Shown here one piece after another: positions 666-11,877 of a stretch of DNA of 64,000 bases (position 1 is the stretch's first letter; each line of letters starts with the position of its first letter). Position numbers and translations under genes: made by a program. The notes below the pieces were generated by a model. It was not told the DNA's origin. It was given only the letters and a program-made list of their open reading frames with translations, and ran no database searches. The stretch lies in IMG/VR virus record IMGVR_UViG_3300023097_000002, positions 1 to 64,000 of that record; one strand, written 5' to 3'. This stretch comes from an uncultured virus (IMG/VR IMGVR_UViG_3300023097_000002) (taxonomy: Duplodnaviria; Heunggongvirae; Uroviricota; Caudoviricetes).

Positions 666-1826
666 ATGGATAAGACGGAAAACAACGAGAAGGTCGCGAA
701 GGTCGACATCGACGAGGACGGTCCGAAGCGTTTCTCCGTTCTGGTTCTGATGGCGAGCATCCTCTCGATCGGCTCCCTCGCCTGGAGCACCTGGTCCTTC
801 ATCGACCTGTACAAGGTCGACGCGCTCACCATCGACAAGCTGGGCGGGCTCAGCCTGATCTCCCTCTCGGCCGCCGCGACGATGGACGTCGTCTGGAGCG
901 CGACGATGGTGGCCCAGTACCAGGGTCAGAAGCTGATGGGCAAGCTGCCCAAGGGGAAGAAGCCCTTCGACTTCCTGCCGGTCATCGGCTGGGTCGAGGC
1001 CCTGTTCGTCGCCGGTCTGCTCGGCTACCACGGAACGACGATCGGCGGCGGCGCGGCGGGGTTCGCGGCGGTCCTCCCGGTCTTCACGAAGCTCACGTGG
1101 ACGATGGCCCTGAACGGCCTGAAGGACCCGAGCGACCTGACCGACGACGAGAAGGCGCAGATGGCCGCGAAGAAGCGGAAGTCCCGCCTCACCCGGGCCG
1201 ACGCCGAGGCGACCGCCGAGCAGCACGAGGCCGACATGATCCTGAAGAACCGCGAGCACGAGGCGGCCCTGGCCGAGCAGCGGCGCCTGGCGGCCATCGA
1301 GCACGAGAAGGTCCAGGCCGAGATCGAGCGCAAGAAGCTGGAACAGCAGGCCCAGTTTGAACTGGAGAAGGCCAAGCTGGAGGGCGAGGCCGAGACCAAG
1401 CTGATGCGTCAGCAGCTCAACGCGCGACTCCAGATCGAGACCCTGCGCAGCCAGCAGGGCATCAGCCTGGAGCGGATGGACGCCGAGCAGGAACTGCGTC
1501 TGCGGGCTCCGCTGGACCTCGGCTTCAACGTCATCCAGGGGCAGGTCTCCCGGCCGCAGCTCACCAAGGGCGGCGTTTCCTTCGAGGAGGAGGACGACGC
1601 GGAGGGCATCAGCCTGGACGGCCTGAACCTGACCGACGCCGAGCGCCGGAAGGTGAACCTGGCGGCCCGCTACTACGCCGCCGACGCGGCCGAGGGCGGC
1701 ATCACCAAGGCCGCCTTCGCGAAGGCCAACCAGACGGGCGCCCCCCGGGTGACCGAGGCGACCACCGCCTTCCCGCTGGAGTGGTTCGTCGAGAACGGTC
1801 TCGCGAGCTGGATGAACCAGGGCTGA
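666..1826 (+). CDS. spdB: SpdB-like plasmid spread membrane protein with coiled coil
   Basis: About four N-terminal hydrophobic segments (AWSTWS..D..W..IGW..YHG..P..K..W..DP) then a long coiled coil, the architecture of Streptomyces SpdB proteins; RBS AAGGGAG. Confidence 0.6.
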   Translation: MDKTENNEKVAKVDIDEDGPKRFSVLVLMASILSIGSLAWSTWSFIDLYKVDALTIDKLGGLSLISLSAAATMDVVWSATMVAQYQGQKLMGKLPKGKKPFDFLPVIGWVEALFVAGLLGYHGTTIGGGAAGFAAVLPVFTKLTWTMALNGLKDPSDLTDDEKAQMAAKKRKSRLTRADAEATAEQHEADMILKNREHEAALAEQRRLAAIEHEKVQAEIERKKLEQQAQFELEKAKLEGEAETKLMRQQLNARLQIETLRSQQGISLERMDAEQELRLRAPLDLGFNVIQGQVSRPQLTKGGVSFEEEDDAEGISLDGLNLTDAERRKVNLAARYYAADAAEGGITKAAFAKANQTGAPRVTEATTAFPLEWFVENGLASWMNQG

Positions 1827-1843
1827 CAAGCCCGCACGGCAGA

Positions 1844-1869
1844 GAAGCCCCCGCTCCGGCGGGGGCTTC
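1844..1869 (+). terminator. Intrinsic terminator
   Basis: GAAGCCCCCGC-TCCG-GCGGGGGCTTC followed by CTGTTTT. Confidence 0.75.
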
Positions 1870-1925
1870 CTGTTTTCCCCAACTTGCCTGTATTCTGGCT
1901 GTGTTGACTAGGAGAGGAGAATGAC

Positions 1926-2240
1926 ATGGCGTGGCGAATCGAGGCATCCGGAGGAACCGGATCCGCCAATTACGTTGTGATCCAGCCGATGATGGACGAC
2001 GACCCGGAGAGTGAAATCCGGCATGCGCTGATCACCATCTCGCCGAAGGGCGGTCGCGAGCACCCGACGATTCCGATGCTTCCGACGGGTGCCCTCTACC
2101 GCGACCGGCTCGGCATGGCGTACCGCATCCAGGAGGCCACCATCGTCGAGACCGGAACCGACGACGGCGAACATTCCATGTGGCGTTACGAGTACCTGGT
2201 CGCCTACAGCGCGACCCTGCCGCTCCGGCCCGTCTCATGA
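1926..2240 (+). CDS. Hypothetical protein
   Basis: RBS GGAGAGGAG; stop overlaps the next start. Confidence 0.6.
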   Translation: MAWRIEASGGTGSANYVVIQPMMDDDPESEIRHALITISPKGGREHPTIPMLPTGALYRDRLGMAYRIQEATIVETGTDDGEHSMWRYEYLVAYSATLPLRPVS

Positions 2241-2446
2241 TGGAGAAGGTCGTCACCTGGGCCATCGCCAAGGCGGTCGAGGATGTCGACGACAGTGTGA
2301 CTACGGCTGCCCTGCTGGGGGCCGCACTGGACACCGCCACGTTCTCCGCGATCGGCGTTCCGGCAACCGGTGCCGTAATCGCAGGAGCCGCCACGGGCGT
2401 GGGCCTGAACGTGGCTCGGAAGATGATGAAGGGGGAGAAGGAGTGA
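2237..2446 (+). CDS. Small Gly/Ala-rich membrane protein
   Basis: ATGA overlap upstream and GTGA overlap downstream; hydrophobic glycine-zipper-like segment. Confidence 0.55.
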   Translation: MMEKVVTWAIAKAVEDVDDSVTTAALLGAALDTATFSAIGVPATGAVIAGAATGVGLNVARKMMKGEKE

Positions 2447-3102
2447 CCGACTGGTGGAACACGTCTGCACCGCAACAGGAGGGTGAGCCGGTTCGCGTGG
2501 AACCGGCCATCGGGTGGGATCCGGAACCCGCACCGTCGATGCCCGCCCCTCCGCCCGATCCTCCAGTTCGGCAGGAAGGGCCGAATCCGCAGAAGCCGGA
2601 TCGGCGTAAGAGCCTTCTTCTCGGAGCGGCCGGTGCTGCTGCCGTAGGGGTTCTGGTCTTCACCGTCATGCCGCACGACGGCTCGACTCCGGCCGACACC
2701 CCTGGCGGATCCTCATCGTCTTCCGCTGAGCAGTTCCCCCCTGCTGCCGGTGGAGGTCCCTCCGAAGGTACGCAGGACCGGGCCGAGGCATCTCAGGCGC
2801 CCGCTCCGCAGAAGCCGAAGGTGGTCACCCTCACTGCCGTACCCGACGGCTCCGGCACGGTCGGCGCCATCGTGAAGGTGACGGTCGTGAACGACACCGA
2901 CGAGACCGTGGTGGTCATGTCGTCGATGGTGAAGGGCGACGGTCGCCCGGCCGTCATCGGTGAGGGAACGCTGGCCCCCGGCTCTCGCCGGGTCGAGCCC
3001 GGCGAGACGGCGACCGGAACCGTCGAGTTCGCCGCGAAGAAGGCCCCCGCTCAGGTGGCTCTCGTGGATCTCAGCGGGAACGTGGTGGCGGCCAGTGGCT
3101 GA
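2443..3102 (+). CDS. Membrane-anchored protein with Pro-rich linker and Ig-like C-terminal domain
   Basis: GTG after GAGAAGGA; one TM segment; beta-rich C-terminus (VKVTVVN...PGETATGTVEF). Confidence 0.6.
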   Translation: MTDWWNTSAPQQEGEPVRVEPAIGWDPEPAPSMPAPPPDPPVRQEGPNPQKPDRRKSLLLGAAGAAAVGVLVFTVMPHDGSTPADTPGGSSSSSAEQFPPAAGGGPSEGTQDRAEASQAPAPQKPKVVTLTAVPDGSGTVGAIVKVTVVNDTDETVVVMSSMVKGDGRPAVIGEGTLAPGSRRVEPGETATGTVEFAAKKAPAQVALVDLSGNVVAASG

Positions 3103-3820
3103 ACCGCTGCTGCACCGCCTCCCGTCGACCGGGAAGTACGACAAGAAGTACCAGGTGCACGGTCACGACCATCTGATCGTCGAGGCGTACTACTCGGACG
3201 CCGAAGACGGCAAGCCGGAGTTCGGCTGCTGGTGGGTGATCGACACCAGATTCTCCGCACTCGACCGGCACCGCCGCCAGATCGTCTTCTCCTCCACGTA
3301 CCTCTCCGACATCCGGAGCTGGCTGAAGGCCGGAGGGGCGAAGCTGTGGGACCCCGAGAAGAGGAAGACCGACAAGGGCTGGAAGCCGATCCCCGAGGGC
3401 TGGCTTCCTGATGACGGGCGACTGGAGGCGAAGCGCCGTGTGCCCTTCAGGCCGTTCGGCGAGACGGGTTCACGGGCGCATCAGGTGGCGCGGCGGACGG
3501 AAGGGCAAGAGCAGGAGCCCAGTGACTACCCGCTCCACCCTCGCGGCCTGACGGGCAAGAAGTACGCCGTCGTCCCCGGGTGGATCACCTCTGTCAACGA
3601 CGGCCAGCGGCACTGGATCGGCTTCGGTGCGCTCACCTGGCTGTACGGAGTCAGTCCGGCCGAGTGCATCAAGGTCGACGACGAGACCGAACGAGGCTGG
3701 AACGACGACATGCGGGCGCACCTGATCTGGCTGTATCCGCAACGCAGGCACGAGGACTACGAGTCGATGAAGGAGGAGCTGGCCAGAGGCGAGGACGCCT
3801 TCAAACTGATCGAGCCCTGA
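3095..3820 (+). CDS. Hypothetical protein
   Basis: Overlaps upstream stop; GC3-biased codons; terminator follows. Confidence 0.55.
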   Translation: MAEPLLHRLPSTGKYDKKYQVHGHDHLIVEAYYSDAEDGKPEFGCWWVIDTRFSALDRHRRQIVFSSTYLSDIRSWLKAGGAKLWDPEKRKTDKGWKPIPEGWLPDDGRLEAKRRVPFRPFGETGSRAHQVARRTEGQEQEPSDYPLHPRGLTGKKYAVVPGWITSVNDGQRHWIGFGALTWLYGVSPAECIKVDDETERGWNDDMRAHLIWLYPQRRHEDYESMKEELARGEDAFKLIEP

Positions 3821-3829
3821 GCATGCGAA

Positions 3830-3859
3830 AGCCCCCGTTGCAACGGTGCGACGGGGGCT
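3830..3859. terminator. Bidirectional terminator between convergent genes
   Basis: AGCCCCCGTTGCA...TGCGACGGGGGCT hairpin. Confidence 0.7.
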
Positions 3860-3880
3860 CTGCACATCCGCATGGGGTCC

Positions 3881-4615
3881 TCACAGGGGCACGTGGAACG
3901 AGACCGGCCGGTTGCCCTCGCAGACCTTCACCGCGACCTCGACGACCTTGCCATTGGCCAGCAGGACCCGGCGTGCCGTCTGCGTGACGATCGCGTACGC
4001 GCCCTTGAGTTCCAGAAGCTCCCGCTCCCGGTCGGTCGCCAGTCGCGACGTGATGACGGGGATCAGATCCTTCTGCCGGGATCCCATGCGCTCGGCGGCC
4101 AGCTCGCGCGAACCGCGCGGCGTGGCCTCCGCCATCGCCAGCTCGGGGGTCACGGCCGTCACCTCGGGCGGGTAGTACGAGTGCCCGGTGGCGACCGGCT
4201 TGCCGTCGATCCGGTTCAGGCGCTCCCGGTAGACGACGCCCTCACCCGGTTCGACCCCCAGCGCGGTGGCGATCTCGGCAGGGCATGGAACCGTCTCGAC
4301 CCGAAGGATCTCCGAGGTCTCCCGGGCGCCGAGCGCCCGGCCGCTTGCCGCGTAGTTCCCGACCCGGTCCTGAACCGTGGCCGTGCGGCCCGAGATGTCC
4401 GCCACGACGGGCGGCCGGTTGCCGCTGGACGGCTCCAGGACCCCTTCAGCCGTCAGCAGTTCCACGACCTTGTCGATGGTGACGCGCGACGTCTTGTGGG
4501 TCTTGGCGAGCCTGCGGCGCGACTCCAGCGGAGTACCCGGCGCCAGCTCACCAGAGGTGATCCTGGATCGGTAATGTGCCGCAATGGCACGGTACTTGGG
4601 AATCTGCTCGCTCAC
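3881..4615 (-). CDS. GntR/HutC-family regulator with UTRA domain (TraR/KorA-like)
   Basis: PKYRAIAAHYRSRITSGELAPGTPLES wHTH plus UTRA-like C-terminus; GTG start after GAGGAG. Confidence 0.85.
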   Translation of the reverse strand: MSEQIPKYRAIAAHYRSRITSGELAPGTPLESRRRLAKTHKTSRVTIDKVVELLTAEGVLEPSSGNRPPVVADISGRTATVQDRVGNYAASGRALGARETSEILRVETVPCPAEIATALGVEPGEGVVYRERLNRIDGKPVATGHSYYPPEVTAVTPELAMAEATPRGSRELAAERMGSRQKDLIPVITSRLATDRERELLELKGAYAIVTQTARRVLLANGKVVEVAVKVCEGNRPVSFHVPL

Positions 4616-4638
4616 TTTTTCTCCTCGCGTTCGCTTGT

Positions 4639-4648
4639 GGCCTAGGCC
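4639..4648. promoter_or_regulatory. Palindromic operator GGCCTAGGCC
   Basis: Perfect palindrome about 24 nt upstream of the GntR start, in a divergent intergenic region. Confidence 0.6.
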
Positions 4649-4882
4649 GTATTGTGTCATGCTGGACTCCACAACGCCAGCAGAGACCGAAGAGAGGGTG
4701 GCATGGAAGGTAACGGGGAGGTTCAGGAGCCGGTTGCGTCGCATGATCGGCCCGTGCCGGAAGCGACTCTCGGGCAGCTTTCTGACTTCGCTGCCAACCA
4801 GGATATCGCCCGATTGGAGGCAACCGTAGAGGCCAACATCGGACTCGCTTCCGATGGAAAGCCGTAACACGGAAGGAGAGAC

Positions 4883-5845
4883 GTGGCGACGAAGGCAGCC
4901 ATTCCGCCGAAGCCGAAGACGGCCCCCACCGTGCACCTCAAGGGCCGGAAGCGGAAGCCGCCACGGACCCTGAAGGGCGACCTCAAGGCATTGAAGGGGA
5001 AGCTCGGCTCGGCCACCACTCGGTGGACTGAGAGTCAGGGCAAGGCGGAAGAGAAGAAGGAAAAGGTACGCCAGGAGGCCGAAAAGATCCTGGCCCCTGT
5101 CAAGGAAAAGGCCGCAGAGGAGAAGAAGCTCGCGGCCGAAGTGATGAAGCCGGTTCAGGCGGCTGCCGCCGCCATCAAGAACGGGCTGGACCCGGCCAAC
5201 GGAAAGACCCGGCCGTACGTCACTTCGTTCATGATCTCCTCGGTGATGTCGTGGGCTGTCGGACCGCAGATTCTGACCGCTCTGTACGAGCGAATCCGCT
5301 TCGGCACCTCGACCACCGGATGGGGGATTCTGAACGGCCCTGGCAGGTGGTTCAGGGACACGATCGGCATGGCGTACGAGTCGGACCGGCTCGGCAGCCT
5401 GATCTGGGCGGCGGTCATGGGGCTTGCCCCCATGTTCCTCATGTTCACCCGGAACCAGGTCGCCGGATACCTGGCCCAGAGCACGTACCGGGGGCGGATG
5501 GTCGCCTTCAGCATCACGTGGCTGACGCGCTCGGCGTGGCTGGTCCCGATCCTGTTCTTCATCGGGGTCTCGTACCCCGATGAGGTCACGGCGATCTTCG
5601 GTTCGCCGTGGACCTTCCAGATGTGGCAGTTCTGGGTCGCCGGTCTGTTCTGCATGGCGTTCTACGCGACCATGTGGACCTTCGACCGGATCGAACGACT
5701 CACCCGCGAACGGGCGGCCATGTCGGAGGAGGAGCTGGAGAAGTCCCAGAGCATGGGGCCTGGCATCTTCCACATCGTGCTCATGATCCCGCTGGCGTCG
5801 ATCGTCACGGGGATCCTGCTCTACGCACCGGGCGCCGCCTGGTGA
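4883..5845 (+). CDS. Multi-pass membrane protein, possibly transfer/spread associated
   Basis: Lys-rich N-terminus plus about five TM segments; RBS GAAGGAG. Confidence 0.7.
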   Translation: MATKAAIPPKPKTAPTVHLKGRKRKPPRTLKGDLKALKGKLGSATTRWTESQGKAEEKKEKVRQEAEKILAPVKEKAAEEKKLAAEVMKPVQAAAAAIKNGLDPANGKTRPYVTSFMISSVMSWAVGPQILTALYERIRFGTSTTGWGILNGPGRWFRDTIGMAYESDRLGSLIWAAVMGLAPMFLMFTRNQVAGYLAQSTYRGRMVAFSITWLTRSAWLVPILFFIGVSYPDEVTAIFGSPWTFQMWQFWVAGLFCMAFYATMWTFDRIERLTRERAAMSEEELEKSQSMGPGIFHIVLMIPLASIVTGILLYAPGAAW

Positions 5846-6079
5846 TGCACAAGGGCCTTCGCTGCCGAGTGGCAGCCCGGCCGGGTTCACCCCGGCCGGA
5901 AGCCGGTTCGCATCCGGCCGAAGGTACGAAGCGGACGAACGAGCCGCTTGGAAAGGGGACGAGTCGTGTTCCAGAAGGACGACGACCTCGACGGGCTGCC
6001 GATACTGAAGCCCGCCGGTCCCGGCCGGTGAGTCTGTAGGGCCGCTGGAGGGCGGCCCCACAGAGAAGGTGAGGGAAAA

Positions 6080-6658
6080 GTGATTCTGGCACTTACGCAG
6101 CAGCAGCAGATCGAGGTTCCGGAGAACTCGTGGATCGGTCACACCACGATGGCGGGCTTCGGAATCATCCTGCTGGTGCTCTCGTTCCTCTGCATCAAGG
6201 GGAACAAGAAGGGTCAGCAGATGTTCCTCTGGGGCGGGCTGACCAAGGCGCTGATGACCAAGGCTGTGCAGCAGCCGACCAGCCGCATGATGACGAAGGT
6301 TCACGGAGGTCCGAGCGAAGGGTTCGACTGGCGGTCCGCAATGACATTCCTCGTGGGAATGTGGGCCATGACGTCGATCGTCAGCTCGACCGGTGGATTC
6401 GTCGTCGACCTGGTCGACTGGTTCCAGGGCCTCGTCATGGCGCTGGCCGACTGGCCGGTCCTGTCCGACATCGGAGCCGGGGGCATCTGCCTCTTCCTCG
6501 GGTTCCTCGCGATGCGGAACAAGGACGACGACAAGCAGGATCTGATGTACGGCGCCATCTGCGGGTTCTTCTTCCCGCTCGGCGGTGGCACCTGGGCCGA
6601 GATCACGCTCCAGATCGGCAACTGGATCCCGCAGCTCATGCAGAGCCCGTTCCACTGA
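6080..6658 (+). CDS. Multi-pass membrane protein
   Basis: About four hydrophobic segments; RBS GAGGG; terminator downstream. Confidence 0.7.
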   Translation: MILALTQQQQIEVPENSWIGHTTMAGFGIILLVLSFLCIKGNKKGQQMFLWGGLTKALMTKAVQQPTSRMMTKVHGGPSEGFDWRSAMTFLVGMWAMTSIVSSTGGFVVDLVDWFQGLVMALADWPVLSDIGAGGICLFLGFLAMRNKDDDKQDLMYGAICGFFFPLGGGTWAEITLQIGNWIPQLMQSPFH

Positions 6659-6670
6659 GGTGGGCGGTTC

Positions 6671-6702
6671 GAACGGCCGGACTCTTCGGGGTCCGGCCGT
6701 TC
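6671..6702 (+). terminator. Intrinsic terminator
   Basis: GAACGGCCGGAC...GTCCGGCCGTTC hairpin with TTCG loop. Confidence 0.75.
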
Positions 6703-6730
6703 TGCGTTTCAACTCCGTTGCAGGTTCGCC

Positions 6731-6760
6731 TTGTTGGCTGGCCTAGGTCAATGTTAGAGT
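6731..6760 (+). promoter_or_regulatory. Promoter with operator GGCCTAGGTC (6740-6749) in the spacer
   Basis: TTGTTG-18 nt-TAGAGT upstream of the transglycosylase gene. Confidence 0.55.
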
Positions 6761-6785
6761 GGAGCCCGGAGAAGGGAGGAGCGTG

Positions 6786-7424
6786 ATGCCACGCAGAGCG
6801 GGCGGAGTATTCGTCGGTGTGTTTTTCGCGGTTGGAGCAGTTCAGGCCGTCACCGGTTTCATTCCGGCGGTCCCGTCTGCTGCGTCCGTCGCGGCACCCA
6901 CGAAGCAGGAGGCCAGCCAGGACTACAAGTTCACCGGCACCTCCGCACCGATCAAGCCTGGCTCGGTCCCGAAGAAGCGCTGGGAAGAGCTGATCAACAA
7001 GTGGGGCAACAAGTGCAAGACGTTGACCCCGGCACTCCTCGCGGCCCAGCTCGATCAGGAGAGCATGGGTTTCAAGCCCGAGGTCATCGACGGGCGCCTG
7101 GACTCCCCCGCCTCCGCGAAGGGGATGGCCCAGTTCATCGACGGAACCTGGGCGACCGAGGGGATCGACGCCAACGGGGACGGCAAGCGGAACAAGTACG
7201 ACCCCGAGGACGCGATCCCGTCGGCCGCGAGCCTGGACTGCAAGCTCGCGAAGGGACTCAAGGACATTCCGGGACCCACCTGGAAGAACATGCTCGCCGG
7301 GTACAACGCGGGCGGCTTCCGGGTGCAGCAGTACAACGGCGTTCCGCCGTGTTCGTTCGCCCGCTGCGAGACGTACAACTACGTGAAGATCATCGAGCAG
7401 AAGACGAGGAAGTACGAGCAGTGA
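6786..7424 (+). CDS. Secreted lytic transglycosylase (SLT family)
   Basis: Signal peptide; LLAAQLDQES, SPASAKGMAQFIDGTW, LAGYNAG and ETYNYV motifs. Confidence 0.9.
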   Translation: MPRRAGGVFVGVFFAVGAVQAVTGFIPAVPSAASVAAPTKQEASQDYKFTGTSAPIKPGSVPKKRWEELINKWGNKCKTLTPALLAAQLDQESMGFKPEVIDGRLDSPASAKGMAQFIDGTWATEGIDANGDGKRNKYDPEDAIPSAASLDCKLAKGLKDIPGPTWKNMLAGYNAGGFRVQQYNGVPPCSFARCETYNYVKIIEQKTRKYEQ

Positions 7425-8020
7425 ACCGGATCCAGCGAGCGGCCCTGGCGGTCGCCTCCGTGGCGCTGCTCGTGCCCGTCACGTCATCCTGTGCCGCCCT
7501 CAAGGCAGCCCCGATCTCGAACGCCACGGCGAACCCCAACCCGGAGATCGAGAAGATCAACTGGTACTCGCCGGAGCAGCGCGCCAAGGAGGCGAAGCGG
7601 CAGGAGCAGGACACCAAGGTCTCCAGCTCCAGGTCCGGCGACGCGGCGGCGGTGGCCATCGCATACGCCCGTACGAAGATCGGAGTTCCCTACCTGTGGG
7701 GAGGCACCGGAACGGCCGCCGAGGGCGGTCGGTTCGACTGCTCCGGCCTGACCCAGGCGGCATACGCGAAGGCGGGAATCAAGATTCCCCGAGTCGCGAA
7801 CGACCAGTACAACACGACCAGCAACCACCCCTCCTGGGATGATCTGAAGCCGGGCGACCTGGTCTTCTTCGGCCAGAAAGGGAACTCGCGCTCGATCCAT
7901 CACGTCGGCATCTACATCGGCGGCGGCAAGATGCTGCACGCGCCACGGACCGGAACGAAGATTCGCGTCAACAACGTGCACTACATGAACGACTACTTCG
8001 GAGCGACGAGGGTGGCCTGA
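7421..8020 (+). CDS. NlpC/P60 peptidoglycan endopeptidase, probable lipoprotein
   Basis: Lipobox-like TSSC; PYLWGG, FDCSGL, PGDLVFF and HVGIY motifs. Confidence 0.92.
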   Translation: MNRIQRAALAVASVALLVPVTSSCAALKAAPISNATANPNPEIEKINWYSPEQRAKEAKRQEQDTKVSSSRSGDAAAVAIAYARTKIGVPYLWGGTGTAAEGGRFDCSGLTQAAYAKAGIKIPRVANDQYNTTSNHPSWDDLKPGDLVFFGQKGNSRSIHHVGIYIGGGKMLHAPRTGTKIRVNNVHYMNDYFGATRVA

Positions 8021-8316
8021 TGGCTGAACACACGGTGCGCGTATGGCGCAGGACAAGGCCCGTCACGGGCGACCCGACCCGGGTCGTCGGCCTGGAGCGG
8101 GATGAGATCACCCTGGAGGCGCCGAGCCTGAAGTCGGCCCTGGAGCAGGTGGTCGACGCCGAATACAAGGAGGGCGGCAATCGGCTCCGGGTGTATGCCC
8201 AGATCGAGCGGCCCGAGGGCGGTCACCTCGGGATCGGCGATTACACCCTCTGTGAACTGGCCTTCGCCGAGGACGAGAAACGCCGGGCCGAACAGTCCGG
8301 CGACATCGAGAAGTGA
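8020..8316 (+). CDS. Hypothetical protein
   Basis: Translationally coupled on both sides. Confidence 0.6.
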   Translation: MAEHTVRVWRRTRPVTGDPTRVVGLERDEITLEAPSLKSALEQVVDAEYKEGGNRLRVYAQIERPEGGHLGIGDYTLCELAFAEDEKRRAEQSGDIEK

Positions 8317-8804
8317 CGGAAACGGAGAAGCACGTGGAACCCAGTCTCGGCACGCCGGACGACATGCTGCGTCAGTCGATGAAGCAGTTCGGCATCGACC
8401 GCGAGACGGCCATCTCTCTGGCCGTGAAGGGCTTCGAAGCGGCCCTTCGAATCGAAGGTGAGGTGACCGAGGAGAAGGTCGACCGCAAGCTGGCCGAACT
8501 CTTCGTCGCCGAGAGCCGCAACCGGTCCCCCTGGTTCGTGGCCCTGATGCAGGCGCACTACCGCAAGAACCTCCCCGCCTGGGAGAAGCTGCACGACGAC
8601 GCGGTGGAGCGCGGCCAGGACCCGGCGACGAAGATGTCCATCACCGAGAGCGTGATCATGGAGATGGCGCAGGAGCGCGTCGAGCTGGTGAAACTCGCCA
8701 AGCAGGGCAAGTCGATCGAGGAGATCACCGAGGCGGCCTTCGCCTTCGACGACAAGCGCCCCGACAGCGAGATGTACCTGCTCCTCGCGCGACAGATGGG
8801 CTGA
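8313..8804 (+). CDS. Hypothetical protein
   Basis: GTGA overlap; GC3 bias. Confidence 0.65.
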   Translation: MTETEKHVEPSLGTPDDMLRQSMKQFGIDRETAISLAVKGFEAALRIEGEVTEEKVDRKLAELFVAESRNRSPWFVALMQAHYRKNLPAWEKLHDDAVERGQDPATKMSITESVIMEMAQERVELVKLAKQGKSIEEITEAAFAFDDKRPDSEMYLLLARQMG

Positions 8805-8815
8805 CGAAGGACCCC

Positions 8816-8846
8816 GACGGGCGGCCGACGCGAACGGCCGCCCGTC
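8816..8846 (+). terminator. Hairpin, possible terminator
   Basis: GACGGGCGGCCG...CGGCCGCCCGTC. Confidence 0.55.
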
Positions 8847-8872
8847 GCCACACCCCGGAAAGGAAGAAGGGC

Positions 8873-9202
8873 ATGACGAAGAACACCAAGCGGGCTGGCG
8901 TCATCACGATCGAGGTCGAACTGCTGAAGCCGCTCAGCCGTATGCGGAAGGTGGTCCTGGAGCTGGCTTGGGAGGACATGCTGGACCTCCCCCTGTCGAC
9001 CGACAAGCTCCAGATCGACCGCATGGAGATCGCCCTGACGCTCGGCCCGGCCGACGACGAGACGATCCTCGACGCGCCGAACTCGCTCCAGGACTTCACC
9101 TGGCAGGGAACCTACGACAGCGGCGAATGGGTGGCCGCCGAGACCTTCATCGCCAACGCCCGGCACGACCGTCGAGTGCTGAACGCCAAGGCGATTCGGT
9201 GA
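8873..9202 (+). CDS. Hypothetical protein
   Basis: RBS AGGAAGAAGG; coupled to the next gene. Confidence 0.65.
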   Translation: MTKNTKRAGVITIEVELLKPLSRMRKVVLELAWEDMLDLPLSTDKLQIDRMEIALTLGPADDETILDAPNSLQDFTWQGTYDSGEWVAAETFIANARHDRRVLNAKAIR

Positions 9203-9912
9203 AGGGGTCGGTGCACGCGGCGATCGGAGCCTCGGCACCGGCAGGTCTCGTGCTCACTCAGCACGTCAGCGTCCTTCAGGGCGCGGTGATGGCAGCGGTC
9301 TCGGCGGGCTTCTCCCTGATGCCCGACCTGGATCACCCCAACGCCTGCGCCACGAAGGCTCTCGGCAAGCCTGTCCACAAGGTTGTCCACAGCCTGTGCA
9401 AGGCGGCCGTGAAGGGGACGGCGCTCGGTCGCGACCGGAGCTACCTGACTTTCCGGAAGGCCCGGGGTCAGGACCCGTACCACCGGACCCTGACGCATAC
9501 CCTGCTCGCCTCGGTGGCGACGGGAGCCCTGGCCTACGTTCTGGCGATGATCTCCCCCATCGCCTGTGGGGCGCTGGCTGCGTTCGGAGTCTTCATGCTC
9601 TGGCCGCTGTACCGGAAGACCATCGGCCTGGTCGTCCTCGGCGCCGCCGTGGCGGCCGTCGGATCGGTGATCTACCTGGACCCCTGGCTGATGGCGCTGG
9701 CCGTGACCGGCGGATATGCAAGTCACGTGGTGGCCGACGGCTGCACGACTGCCGGTGTTCCGGCGTTCTGGCCGATGACCATCCAGGGCAAGCGCTGGTG
9801 GAACATCCGGCTCTTGGGGGGATCCGTCTCCTCCGGGTCAGCCGCAGAGAAGGGACCGGCGATCGGGGTGGCGATGGCCTCCAACGCACTTCTGGTCCTG
9901 CTCAGCATGTAG
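9199..9912 (+). CDS. Membrane-bound metal-dependent hydrolase (YdjM-like)
   Basis: H..PDLDH..HRTLTH..SHVVAD..G.P.FWP motifs. Confidence 0.85.
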   Translation: MKGSVHAAIGASAPAGLVLTQHVSVLQGAVMAAVSAGFSLMPDLDHPNACATKALGKPVHKVVHSLCKAAVKGTALGRDRSYLTFRKARGQDPYHRTLTHTLLASVATGALAYVLAMISPIACGALAAFGVFMLWPLYRKTIGLVVLGAAVAAVGSVIYLDPWLMALAVTGGYASHVVADGCTTAGVPAFWPMTIQGKRWWNIRLLGGSVSSGSAAEKGPAIGVAMASNALLVLLSM

Positions 9913-9914
9913 GG

Positions 9915-9939
9915 AAGCCCGGCCTCTGGCCGGGCTTTT
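9915..9939 (+). terminator. Intrinsic terminator
   Basis: AAGCCCGGCC-TCT-GGCCGGGCTTTT. Confidence 0.75.
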
Positions 9940-9952
9940 CTGCTCTTGGCGA

Positions 9953-10447
9953 ATGACCTACATCTGGCGCACAATTGAAGACGGAAGTGGAGGGAAAGGT
10001 GATGCGATTCCGGTGACGCACGAGAAGGACGAGGTCTACGGCACGACGACGCGCCGGACTCTGGCGTACACGCGTACCCAGGACGAGCCGCCCACGGCGG
10101 ACTTCCGGCCCCGCGCGGTACCCGTACCCGTTCAGCCACAGGAACGCATGGCCCCGCTGCCGCCCGAGGAGACCAGCCCGTACGGACCGGAGGCGGTCGT
10201 CCGCGCCCGCGAGATGGACTACGAGCTGACGACGCGCATCCAGCAGGAGTCGCCGTACGTGGCGCAGGAAGTCGTCGAGCACAAGATCCACGACTACCGG
10301 CTCTACATCGGCATGTGGATCGTGGCCGGTCTGAGTGCCGTCACGGCCTTCCTCACGTTCGACCTGGTGCACCTGGCCATAGCCGGTGTCGCGGTCGTCT
10401 TCGCCCTGATGTCCTCCCCCGGGCAGCAGTACCGAGACGTGGATTGA
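9953..10447 (+). CDS. Membrane protein with two C-terminal TM segments
   Basis: Pro-rich N-terminus and hydrophobic C-terminus; start codon uncertain. Confidence 0.55.
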   Translation: MTYIWRTIEDGSGGKGDAIPVTHEKDEVYGTTTRRTLAYTRTQDEPPTADFRPRAVPVPVQPQERMAPLPPEETSPYGPEAVVRAREMDYELTTRIQQESPYVAQEVVEHKIHDYRLYIGMWIVAGLSAVTAFLTFDLVHLAIAGVAVVFALMSSPGQQYRDVD

Positions 10448-10473
10448 CGCGGGCTGCATGGCTGCCATAAACT
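10444..10473 (+). promoter_or_regulatory. Strong sigma70-type promoter
   Basis: TTGACG-18 nt-TAAACT, 27 nt before the ATG at 10501. Confidence 0.65.
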
Positions 10474-10500
10474 GAACTTACCCGAACGGAAGGGAAGTTC

Positions 10501-10722
10501 ATGGGAGTCCTCAGCCGCGTCAAGCACTTCTTGACGCGAGACGGCGCCACGGTCGTCATCGAGAACACCGGTCCGGCCACCAGTTCGAACGGCGGGGCGG
10601 CGGTCACCGGATACAGCGGGCCGTCGCCGAAGTCCGGCGGAAGCGTCACGGTGAAGAACACCGGTCCGGCGACCGCATCCGGTCCCGGCAGTCGGTCCGT
10701 CTCCGGAATCGACTACACCTGA
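10501..10722 (+). CDS. 73-aa two-repeat Gly/Ser/Thr-rich protein (amyloid-signalling-motif-like)
   Basis: Repeats VVIENTGPATSSNGGAAVTGY and VTVKNTGPATASGPGSRSVSGIDY; own promoter and RBS; TGATG coupling to the next gene. Confidence 0.65.
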   Translation: MGVLSRVKHFLTRDGATVVIENTGPATSSNGGAAVTGYSGPSPKSGGSVTVKNTGPATASGPGSRSVSGIDYT

Positions 10723-10925
10723 TGGCCGGGCGGAAGAAGTCCGAACAGGGACCGGAAAAGCGCGAAGAGCGGACCGTCGTGCGCTGGACGAGCAGCGAGA
10801 AGAAGCGGCTCGCCGAGGCCAAGAAGAACATGGGCGTCCCGTACGACGTGGATGTGGTGCGGATTCTGACCCTTCGGGGTCTCGATTCCCTGCTGGGCAA
10901 GGAGCCGGAAAACGTGGCAGAGTGA
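10722..10925 (+). CDS. Ribbon-helix-helix-like DNA-binding protein
   Basis: RTVVRWTSSEKKRLAEAKK...VVRILTLRGL strand-helix-helix pattern. Confidence 0.55.
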   Translation: MAGRKKSEQGPEKREERTVVRWTSSEKKRLAEAKKNMGVPYDVDVVRILTLRGLDSLLGKEPENVAE

Positions 10926-11116
10926 TCGCCATGACGAACAGCATCTCCTCGGATCCCCTGGTCGACATCACCGAGGCTGCCGCGCGCATGGGCGTGAAGG
11001 AACGCCGCGCGCGCCGGATCCTCGCCCAGAACCTCATCCAGCCGGTCCGGACCGCCCAGGGAATCCGCTATCGGCTCGACGACATCCGCGACGTGAAGCG
11101 GATGTACCAGCAGTGA
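10922..11116 (+). CDS. Excisionase/MerR-like HTH protein
   Basis: LVDITEAAARMGVKERRARR...RYRLDDI. Confidence 0.7.
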   Translation: MIAMTNSISSDPLVDITEAAARMGVKERRARRILAQNLIQPVRTAQGIRYRLDDIRDVKRMYQQ

Positions 11117-11260: not shown

Positions 11261-11800
11261 GTGAACGATCAGGAAATCCGTGCTGCCGCCGCCCAGGCTG
11301 CGGCCACGCTCATGGCTCCCATGCAGCCCATGCCCGCCGACTTCGTCGCCGTGGCCGAGGTCGTTGAGGCGTTCATCCGAGACGGCAAGGAGGCGGCCTT
11401 CGCTCTCACGGTTCCCGTGGACGCCCCGGCCCAGCTCCCGGCCCCCGATCCCGAGCCGCCTGCCCAGGTGGGCCAGGTTCCGGTCGAGGACGCCCCTCCC
11501 GTCCAGGATGCGACACCCCCGGAGGAGCCCAGTCCTGCGCCCGAGCCGGAGGCCCAGGTGATCCAGATGGTGGGCCGTGTCGCTTCCCCGAAGCAGCAGG
11601 AAGCCCGGAGCATCATCGAACGCAAGAAGAAGGAGCGCGTCGACTCGATCGTGGCCGAAGCGTCCGTCGCCAAGGTCAAGGCGCACAAGCAGCGCCTCCT
11701 CGACGACGCCGAGGGCGCCGGACTGGCGGACTACCCCGTCATCATCAAGGGTTCGACGATGACCCTGGGAACGTATCTCGGTTCCCTGCTTGGAAGTTGA
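11261..11800 (+). CDS. Hypothetical protein with Pro-rich linker
   Basis: RBS GGAGAAG; GC3 bias. Confidence 0.65.
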   Translation: MNDQEIRAAAAQAAATLMAPMQPMPADFVAVAEVVEAFIRDGKEAAFALTVPVDAPAQLPAPDPEPPAQVGQVPVEDAPPVQDATPPEEPSPAPEPEAQVIQMVGRVASPKQQEARSIIERKKKERVDSIVAEASVAKVKAHKQRLLDDAEGAGLADYPVIIKGSTMTLGTYLGSLLGS

Positions 11801-11877
11801 CCTCTTCTGGTGATAGAATCGCAGAAGAAGGGAAAACGCCGGTATCTTTGAGTGACCAGTTCACGAGGAGGTACCGA

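Follow-up and report, generated by a model that had tools for sequence, protein, structure and literature searches.

A stand-alone two-repeat tag in Streptomyces phages that resembles predicted host NLR-associated amyloid-signalling motifs: a putative decoy

Bacterial amyloid signalling sequences (BASS) have a defining pair layout, in which an effector and an NLR are encoded side by side and share a motif (10.1101/2020.01.06.895854). In E. coli, amyloid signalling by Bab/Agp executes antiphage death (10.1101/2024.11.07.622273), and the role of the Streptomyces Bell/NLR amyloid pairs is stated in the literature to be unresolved. Among animal viruses, the N-terminal 90 residues of M45 form mixed fibrils and block death (10.1101/324590). 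Neither a BASS copy encoded by a phage nor a phage decoy of bacterial amyloid signalling turned up in the literature surveyed, which took in few subscription papers and covered PMC12261475 by term search, and a term search of Ibarlosa et al. (10.1101/2024.11.07.622273) returned no phage counter-measure to Bab/Agp. Here, we describe a small gene of Streptomyces phages that is real and, on sequence comparison, well tied to a host NLR-associated tag, and whose function as a decoy is putative.

The window, by which we mean the whole stretch of 64,000 nucleotides that was analysed, is a virus record 38% complete, with capsid and DNA polymerase A genes. At this locus it is syntenic with Frankenweenie, Satis and JustBecause, in which the orthologues are gp97, gp89 and gp86, respectively. 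Full-length matches to the 73-aa protein were found in seven Streptomyces phage records, and in the BM phages seen its place among the neighbouring genes does not change. Frankenweenie, which belongs to cluster BM, has been reported to be without integrase and repressor (PMC10652959). The gene and the parts of its product are as follows:

10501..10722, + strand: stand-alone motif gene, 73 aa, ATG start; a conserved gene of a cluster-BM-like Streptomyces phage
10501..10551, + strand: leader, residues 1-17, usually basic, with hydrophobic/basic alternation and variable sequence
10552..10611, + strand: repeat 1, residues 18-37; 18.3 bits with a single-repeat profile from host effectors
10612..10644, + strand: linker starting G-Y-x-G-P (here G-Y-S-G-P), the receptor-side (NLR) form
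10645..10719, + strand: repeat 2 (residues 49-69) and terminal S-G-I-D-Y-T; 35.7 bits with the same single-repeat profile; effector-side length and ending

The gene is considered real because 26 homologues were found among 30 candidates and because of its pN/pS values, which were pooled over 11 orthologues from uncorrected counts and came to 0.31 for repeat 2, 0.43 for the linker, 0.60 for repeat 1 (here residues 18-39) and 0.83 for the leader. Both repeats lie below 1, and the effector-type repeat 2 is the best-conserved part. The repeats, with a period of 31 aa (93 nt), fit the V-x-[IV]-x-N-T-G-P-A-T pattern described by the initial annotation, at residues 18-37 and 49-69; its picture of a protein made almost only of repeats has to be revised, since residues 1-17 form a leader throughout the family. 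That leader is a possible, weakly indicated membrane tether, and only 3 of 13 homologues had a leader whose hydrophobic moment exceeded that of shuffles at p<0.05. The identical 16-nt repeat that had also been pointed out (10562-10577 and 10655-10670) occurs exactly twice in the window and supplies codons for the shared NTGP core; a role as a DNA element is ruled out because the two repeats of most relatives differ from each other at this spot. Family searches found neither an effector domain nor an NB-ARC/NACHT domain in the 73-aa protein, and a longer form of it was looked for and not found.

Beta propensity marks 20-25-residue repeats in the protein, and its predicted secondary structure consists of strands only. 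The monomer was modelled as two equal three-strand units with poor confidence (pLDDT 53), and the model of a three-repeat homologue is all-beta (pLDDT 76, pTM 0.66) with no match among solved folds in the PDB. Among the family members, P0029 is a natural three-repeat stand-alone variant and the best-folding one, and P0038 looks like P0023 copied with numerous changes of C-to-T type, which probably arose in sequencing or assembly. When the family profile was run against 1.84 billion proteins, 59 hits were obtained and sorted by reading them: 28 small proteins with a C-terminal tag, 17 stand-alone proteins, 6 NLR-like proteins or fragments with an N-terminal tag (including P0053 with NACHT and P0070 with NB-ARC/TPR), 7 beta-rich proteins with the repeat inside and 1 fibronectin false hit. 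The seven embedded cases (P0036, P0040, P0047, P0048, P0056, P0062 and P0081) form a 140-175-aa family with the same repeat in mid-protein, for which no family match and no effector or receptor domain was found. The repeat therefore has other settings too, and this speaks for a phage gene with a job of its own, encoding a self-assembling beta-strand protein (scaffold, membrane or virion accessory) whose likeness to host tags would reflect ancestry only.

In Streptomyces, the tag was detected in at least 49 of 401 genomes with the phage profile and in at least 67 of 401 with a host profile, both lower bounds because only 14-15 candidates were scored per genome. In 31 host loci the tag ends a small protein; 23 of these proteins are predicted membrane hairpins, 7 have a helical domain of Bell type and 1 is a fragment. 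A Walker A motif lies within 1.4 kb downstream in 21 of these loci (background 0.048 per search window), a second tag within 0.4 kb downstream in 19 (160 kb of control DNA gave no hit), and the two share a single reading frame in 14; some tags caught by the two-repeat profile (e.g. at L008 and L010) escape the single-repeat one. Pfam identifies NB-ARC and TPR for L008, and NACHT for L015 and L027. The host relatives thus have the BASS layout, with the motif at the C-terminus of the effector and also at the N-terminus of the neighbouring NB-ARC/NACHT protein, and the NLR link that the initial annotation had drawn is borne out. The loci were found with the phage profile, which favours tags like the phage's; the layout itself (effector C-terminus, receptor N-terminus) is independent of the query. 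No PADLOC model exists for the host pair. Its commonest small partner (L008, L010-L039) is a conserved hydrophobic hairpin protein of ~117 aa without a family in Pfam, NCBIfam or PADLOC, a candidate new effector class. The downstream receptor genes look broken in L012, L028, L029, L030 and L034.

Profiles built from host tags only give the phage protein 59 bits on the effector side and 44 bits on the receptor side. Among 1152 phage frames it ranks first with both, ahead of next-best frames at 10.9 and 8.2 bits, and 5000 shuffles peak at 11.5 and 13.8 bits. In reverse, one host effector tag was searched against 50,697 phage records and matched only this gene, in five Streptomyces phages, which partly answers the bias that comes from finding host loci with a phage profile. 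The phage protein combines signatures that the host keeps on separate sides. The G-Y-x-G-P linker occurs in 26/26 phage-type proteins, in 16/18 on the NLR side and in 1/30 on the effector side, whereas the effector-type ending (in the window S-G-I-D-Y-T) is found in 26/26, 0/18 and 21/30, respectively; the 14-residue spacing in repeat 2 is shared by 24/26 phage-type proteins and 26/30 effectors, compared with 4/18 on the NLR side. As judged from these residues, the protein is a hybrid of a receptor-type linker and an effector-type end. Median identities between phage and host tags are 47% and 46%, similar to those within 16 host pairs (36-52%) and to the 43-56% given for cross-seeding BASS pairs (Dyrka 2020, 10.1101/2020.01.06.895854). 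What the phage encodes is a host motif in viral hands without a killing domain, as in the RHIM-like decoy mode.

Stand-alone copies also occur in other contexts. Coruscant (family Stanwilliamsviridae) carries a 62-aa version between two tRNA-Pro genes in a locus of 47% GC, and no phage counterparts of that gene were found except in the BM group. GenBank labels it DUF4774, an assignment that we reject (19.2 bits vs a Pfam cut-off of 25), and the 73-aa protein of the window has no DUF4774 match. At L007, a stand-alone version lies among other neighbour genes again. In a weakly supported tree, the stand-alone copies cluster apart from both host sides, which suggests that the tag arose once and then passed from phage to phage, instead of being captured several times. 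A stand-alone multi-repeat version, P0034 (Actinomadura citrea, WP_329085110.1), sits on a 9.2-Mb bacterial contig and could be a prophage gene or a host regulator. The separate clustering would also suit a protein with a job of its own. Such a protein would not be expected to show both side-specific signatures in every homologue, nor an identity to host tags that matches the identity within host pairs; the gene lies in a regulatory operon far from the structural genes, and its Coruscant copy lies in a tRNA cluster with the BM group as its only phage counterpart. We therefore regard an own job as improbable.

On either side of the gene, the window contains the following:

9953..10447, + strand: upstream membrane-protein gene; the annotated start in relatives is ~60 nt later
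10722..11116, + strand: two coupled downstream genes, for a 67-aa protein and a 64-aa helix-turn-helix protein

The order of the downstream genes is conserved in relatives, and their products are candidate regulators of the operon; the 67-aa protein has no family match and is presumably ribbon-helix-helix-like. Helicase and replication genes follow in the operon of the 73-aa gene, and the structural genes lie far away. A second promoter-like site with an extended -10 (TTGGAA-18-TAGAAT, 11790-11819) lies at the start of a helix-turn-helix gene, ahead of a UvrD-like helicase. Two hydrophobic segments stand at the end of the upstream gene, which stops 54 nt short of the 73-aa gene, an arrangement that would be expected if the tag were half of a phage-borne signalling pair or of an effector split over both genes. 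This is very improbable and largely refuted. The initial annotation had seen no NLR domain in the window; searches of the record (38% complete) likewise found no NB-ARC or NACHT, nor did searches of five related or complete phage genomes, each of which has one strong tag copy and no second. Moreover, the 73-aa gene is in another frame than the membrane-protein gene and has its own start signals, the neighbours differ in Coruscant and L007, and the upstream protein is unrelated to the host hairpin (absent from the top matches to the host effector hairpin profile, best E 1.1).

Further upstream, from 666 to 9912, extends a plasmid-like block that is also present in Frankenweenie, a phage reported without integrase, and that may serve spread through the mycelium. 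A terminator-like stem at 9921-9945, after the YdjM gene, parts this block from the membrane-protein gene. Members of the block are:

about 3881-4720, - strand: GntR/UTRA regulator, with membrane proteins
6759-7424: SLT
ending at 8020: NlpC/P60
ending at 9912: YdjM

This content favours a reading in which the phage protein jams the same host pair, but the role of that pair is defence against DNA that enters or spreads, or the control of hyphal incompatibility or some other process, rather than action against phages. The fungal counterparts act in incompatibility (10.1101/2020.01.06.895854), and one host receptor scores above the cut-off of NF040586, the FxSxx-COOH system TPR protein. A complete known defence system (CBASS) adjoins just 1 of 9 host loci, compared with 0 of 9 controls; in L056:7763-13592, the host pair directly adjoins a CBASS cyclase and a two-transmembrane effector. 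The NF040586 match and the 1-of-9 CBASS count also weigh against a decoy that serves counter-defence, as they leave the antiphage role of the host pair putative. A non-antiphage pair is nevertheless unlikely, as Coruscant carries the gene in a tRNA cluster and the sole bacterial amyloid pair we met with a tested role is antiphage (10.1101/2024.11.07.622273).

The DNA directly 5' of the 73-aa gene is nearly invariant in eight aligned phages and contains three elements:

10444-10473, + strand: promoter-like site TTGACG-18-TAAACT, whose -35 box shares bases with the stop codon that closes the membrane-protein gene
10458..10468: palindrome ATGGC-T-GCCAT in the promoter spacer, a candidate operator
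10473..10501, + strand: predicted RNA hairpin over the ribosome-binding site, -12.9 kcal/mol

The near-consensus promoter reported by the initial annotation is present, and two promoter-like sites were found in 5 kb where 0.3 were expected; its placing of the gene at the head of an early arm is only putative, as same-strand genes extend further upstream. The overlap with the stop codon means that part of the -35 conservation is forced. Among the eight phages, the -10 box reads TAGACT in five, TAAACT in two and TAGGCT in one, while the palindrome is invariant in 8/8 and the bases 5' of it vary; within the window there is no other exact copy of it. The hairpin has a z of -1.7 for 41 nt and of -4.3 for the 81-nt region, and no covariation was seen among the eight nearly invariant sequences. 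Transcription from this promoter would probably begin within the hairpin, so that the ribosome-binding site would be left free.

On balance, we lean modestly towards the reading that the gene is a phage copy of the two-repeat tag of host partner and NLR-like proteins and that its likely role is to intercept, as a decoy, a predicted amyloid death signal. By analogy with BASS and HET-s, a host receptor, once activated, would assemble its tags into a cross-beta seed, which, if Bab/Agp is also a guide, would template the effector's tag and cluster its membrane-damaging part. Phage copies in solution might then add to the seed and slip in among effector molecules. Much as with herpesvirus RHIM proteins, this would consume the seed and keep the membrane domains away from one another, and the infected hypha could survive until phage is made. 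At a guess, the protein might be kept below the level of self-seeding by the conserved palindrome together with the hairpin that covers the ribosome-binding site. The broader claim, namely that this is the first phage counter-defence against bacterial amyloid signalling, a family-spanning hybrid tag that would stack with both sides of an unnamed BASS family and poison the signal, we put at even chances. The tag was detected in only 67 of 401 sampled Streptomyces genomes, yet the BM phages seen keep the gene, which counts against a decoy. So do the poor monomer model, the missing PDB match for the better-modelled three-repeat homologue, the seven proteins with the repeat in mid-protein and the search bias towards host tags like the phage's.

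The same stacking could also work the other way. Free aggregated BASS11 motif triggers the Bab effector (10.1101/2024.11.07.622273) and [Het-s] triggers HET-S; a copy without a toxin can therefore activate instead of block. The phage protein might thus seed the host effector on purpose, for example for late membrane weakening or for walling off compartments against competing phages. Its linker is receptor-type throughout, its basic leader and two repeats resemble a receptor N-terminus cut from the sensor, and the control elements upstream look tight. However, cell death brought on by an operon that leads into helicase and replication genes would be costly to the phage, a minority of the sampled genomes contain the effector, and the best-conserved part is the effector-type second repeat. 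A purposeful trigger is accordingly doubtful, and the decoy remains the reading that we prefer.

The nearest relatives of the tag in published data are PKT67323.1/PKT67324.1 and EYU71351.1, listed in supplementary file 1 of PMC8086366 as 'class not assigned', which carry the same two-repeat tag as the phage gene; our locus L030 is a near copy of the former pair. In these entries, the NLR side has the G-Y-x-G-P linker and the Bell side ends in G-V-D-Y-S. They differ from the phage gene in being host genes with Bell or NB-ARC domains, of which it has neither, and from the host loci described here in that Bell is the partner, whereas the predicted membrane hairpin is the commonest one in our set. 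Like the host relatives, BASS1-10 have adjacent effectors and NLRs, G/N/V-rich repeats and double repeats with a proline-rich spacer (10.1101/2020.01.06.895854); unlike in BASS1-10, the receptor side of this motif often has two repeats. Assignment to one of these classes was rejected, as the motif differs by eye from 175 class members (one validation fold). BASS6, the nearest class, shares only a short T-A-S-G-x-x-S element, and word searches of the PMC8086366 sets returned nothing beyond 'class not assigned' entries and a BASS6 stretch of different build. The motif thus appears to work like a BASS and, by eye and by word search, to lie outside BASS1-10. The match to a known actinobacterial motif that the initial annotation had suggested stands in part: the motif is NLR-associated and has unclassified entries in the BASS dataset on both sides, and it is not one of BASS1-10.

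A phage gene that copies one host tag is indirect evidence that phages meet Bell/NLR pairs, and a direct test is supplied by cultured phages with the gene (Satis, JustBecause and Coruscant) together with a defined host pair. In addition, a motif family that has no name so far, and whose partner is a membrane hairpin, comes into view in about one-sixth of the Streptomyces genomes sampled. If the gene blocks, amyloid mimicry as immune evasion would span phages and herpesviruses, and active host systems could be traced through stand-alone tags in phage genomes; should it trigger, the phage would be exploiting host death machinery in a new manner. If counter-defence is true, the membrane-hairpin/NB-ARC pairs would be an undescribed antiphage system and the phage gene a bacterial counterpart of the herpesvirus RHIM decoys.

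Three known systems place the locus. The host pair is like Bab/Agp with BASS11, where an amyloid tag joins a sensor to a membrane-targeting effector (10.1101/2024.11.07.622273), and it differs in that Bab/Agp is from E. coli, has a TPR-GreA/B-PIN sensor and another motif, and has a demonstrated antiphage role (10.1101/2024.11.07.622273). With [Het-s]/HET-S/NWD2 of Podospora, which has two pseudo-repeats and a flexible G/P-rich loop, the likeness is in layout (10.1101/2020.01.06.895854), and the activation of HET-S by [Het-s] amyloid is the opposite of a decoy. The herpesvirus RHIM decoys (MCMV M45, HSV ICP6 and VZV ORF20) come closest in that a virus carries a host amyloid signalling motif, as here (PMC13506858); they belong to animal viruses, use the RHIM sequence and bear the motif on large proteins, whereas the phage protein is a 73-aa stand-alone and a putative inhibitor. 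Viral amyloid decoys and bacterial amyloid signalling are each already known, and their combination in a phage is what would be new.
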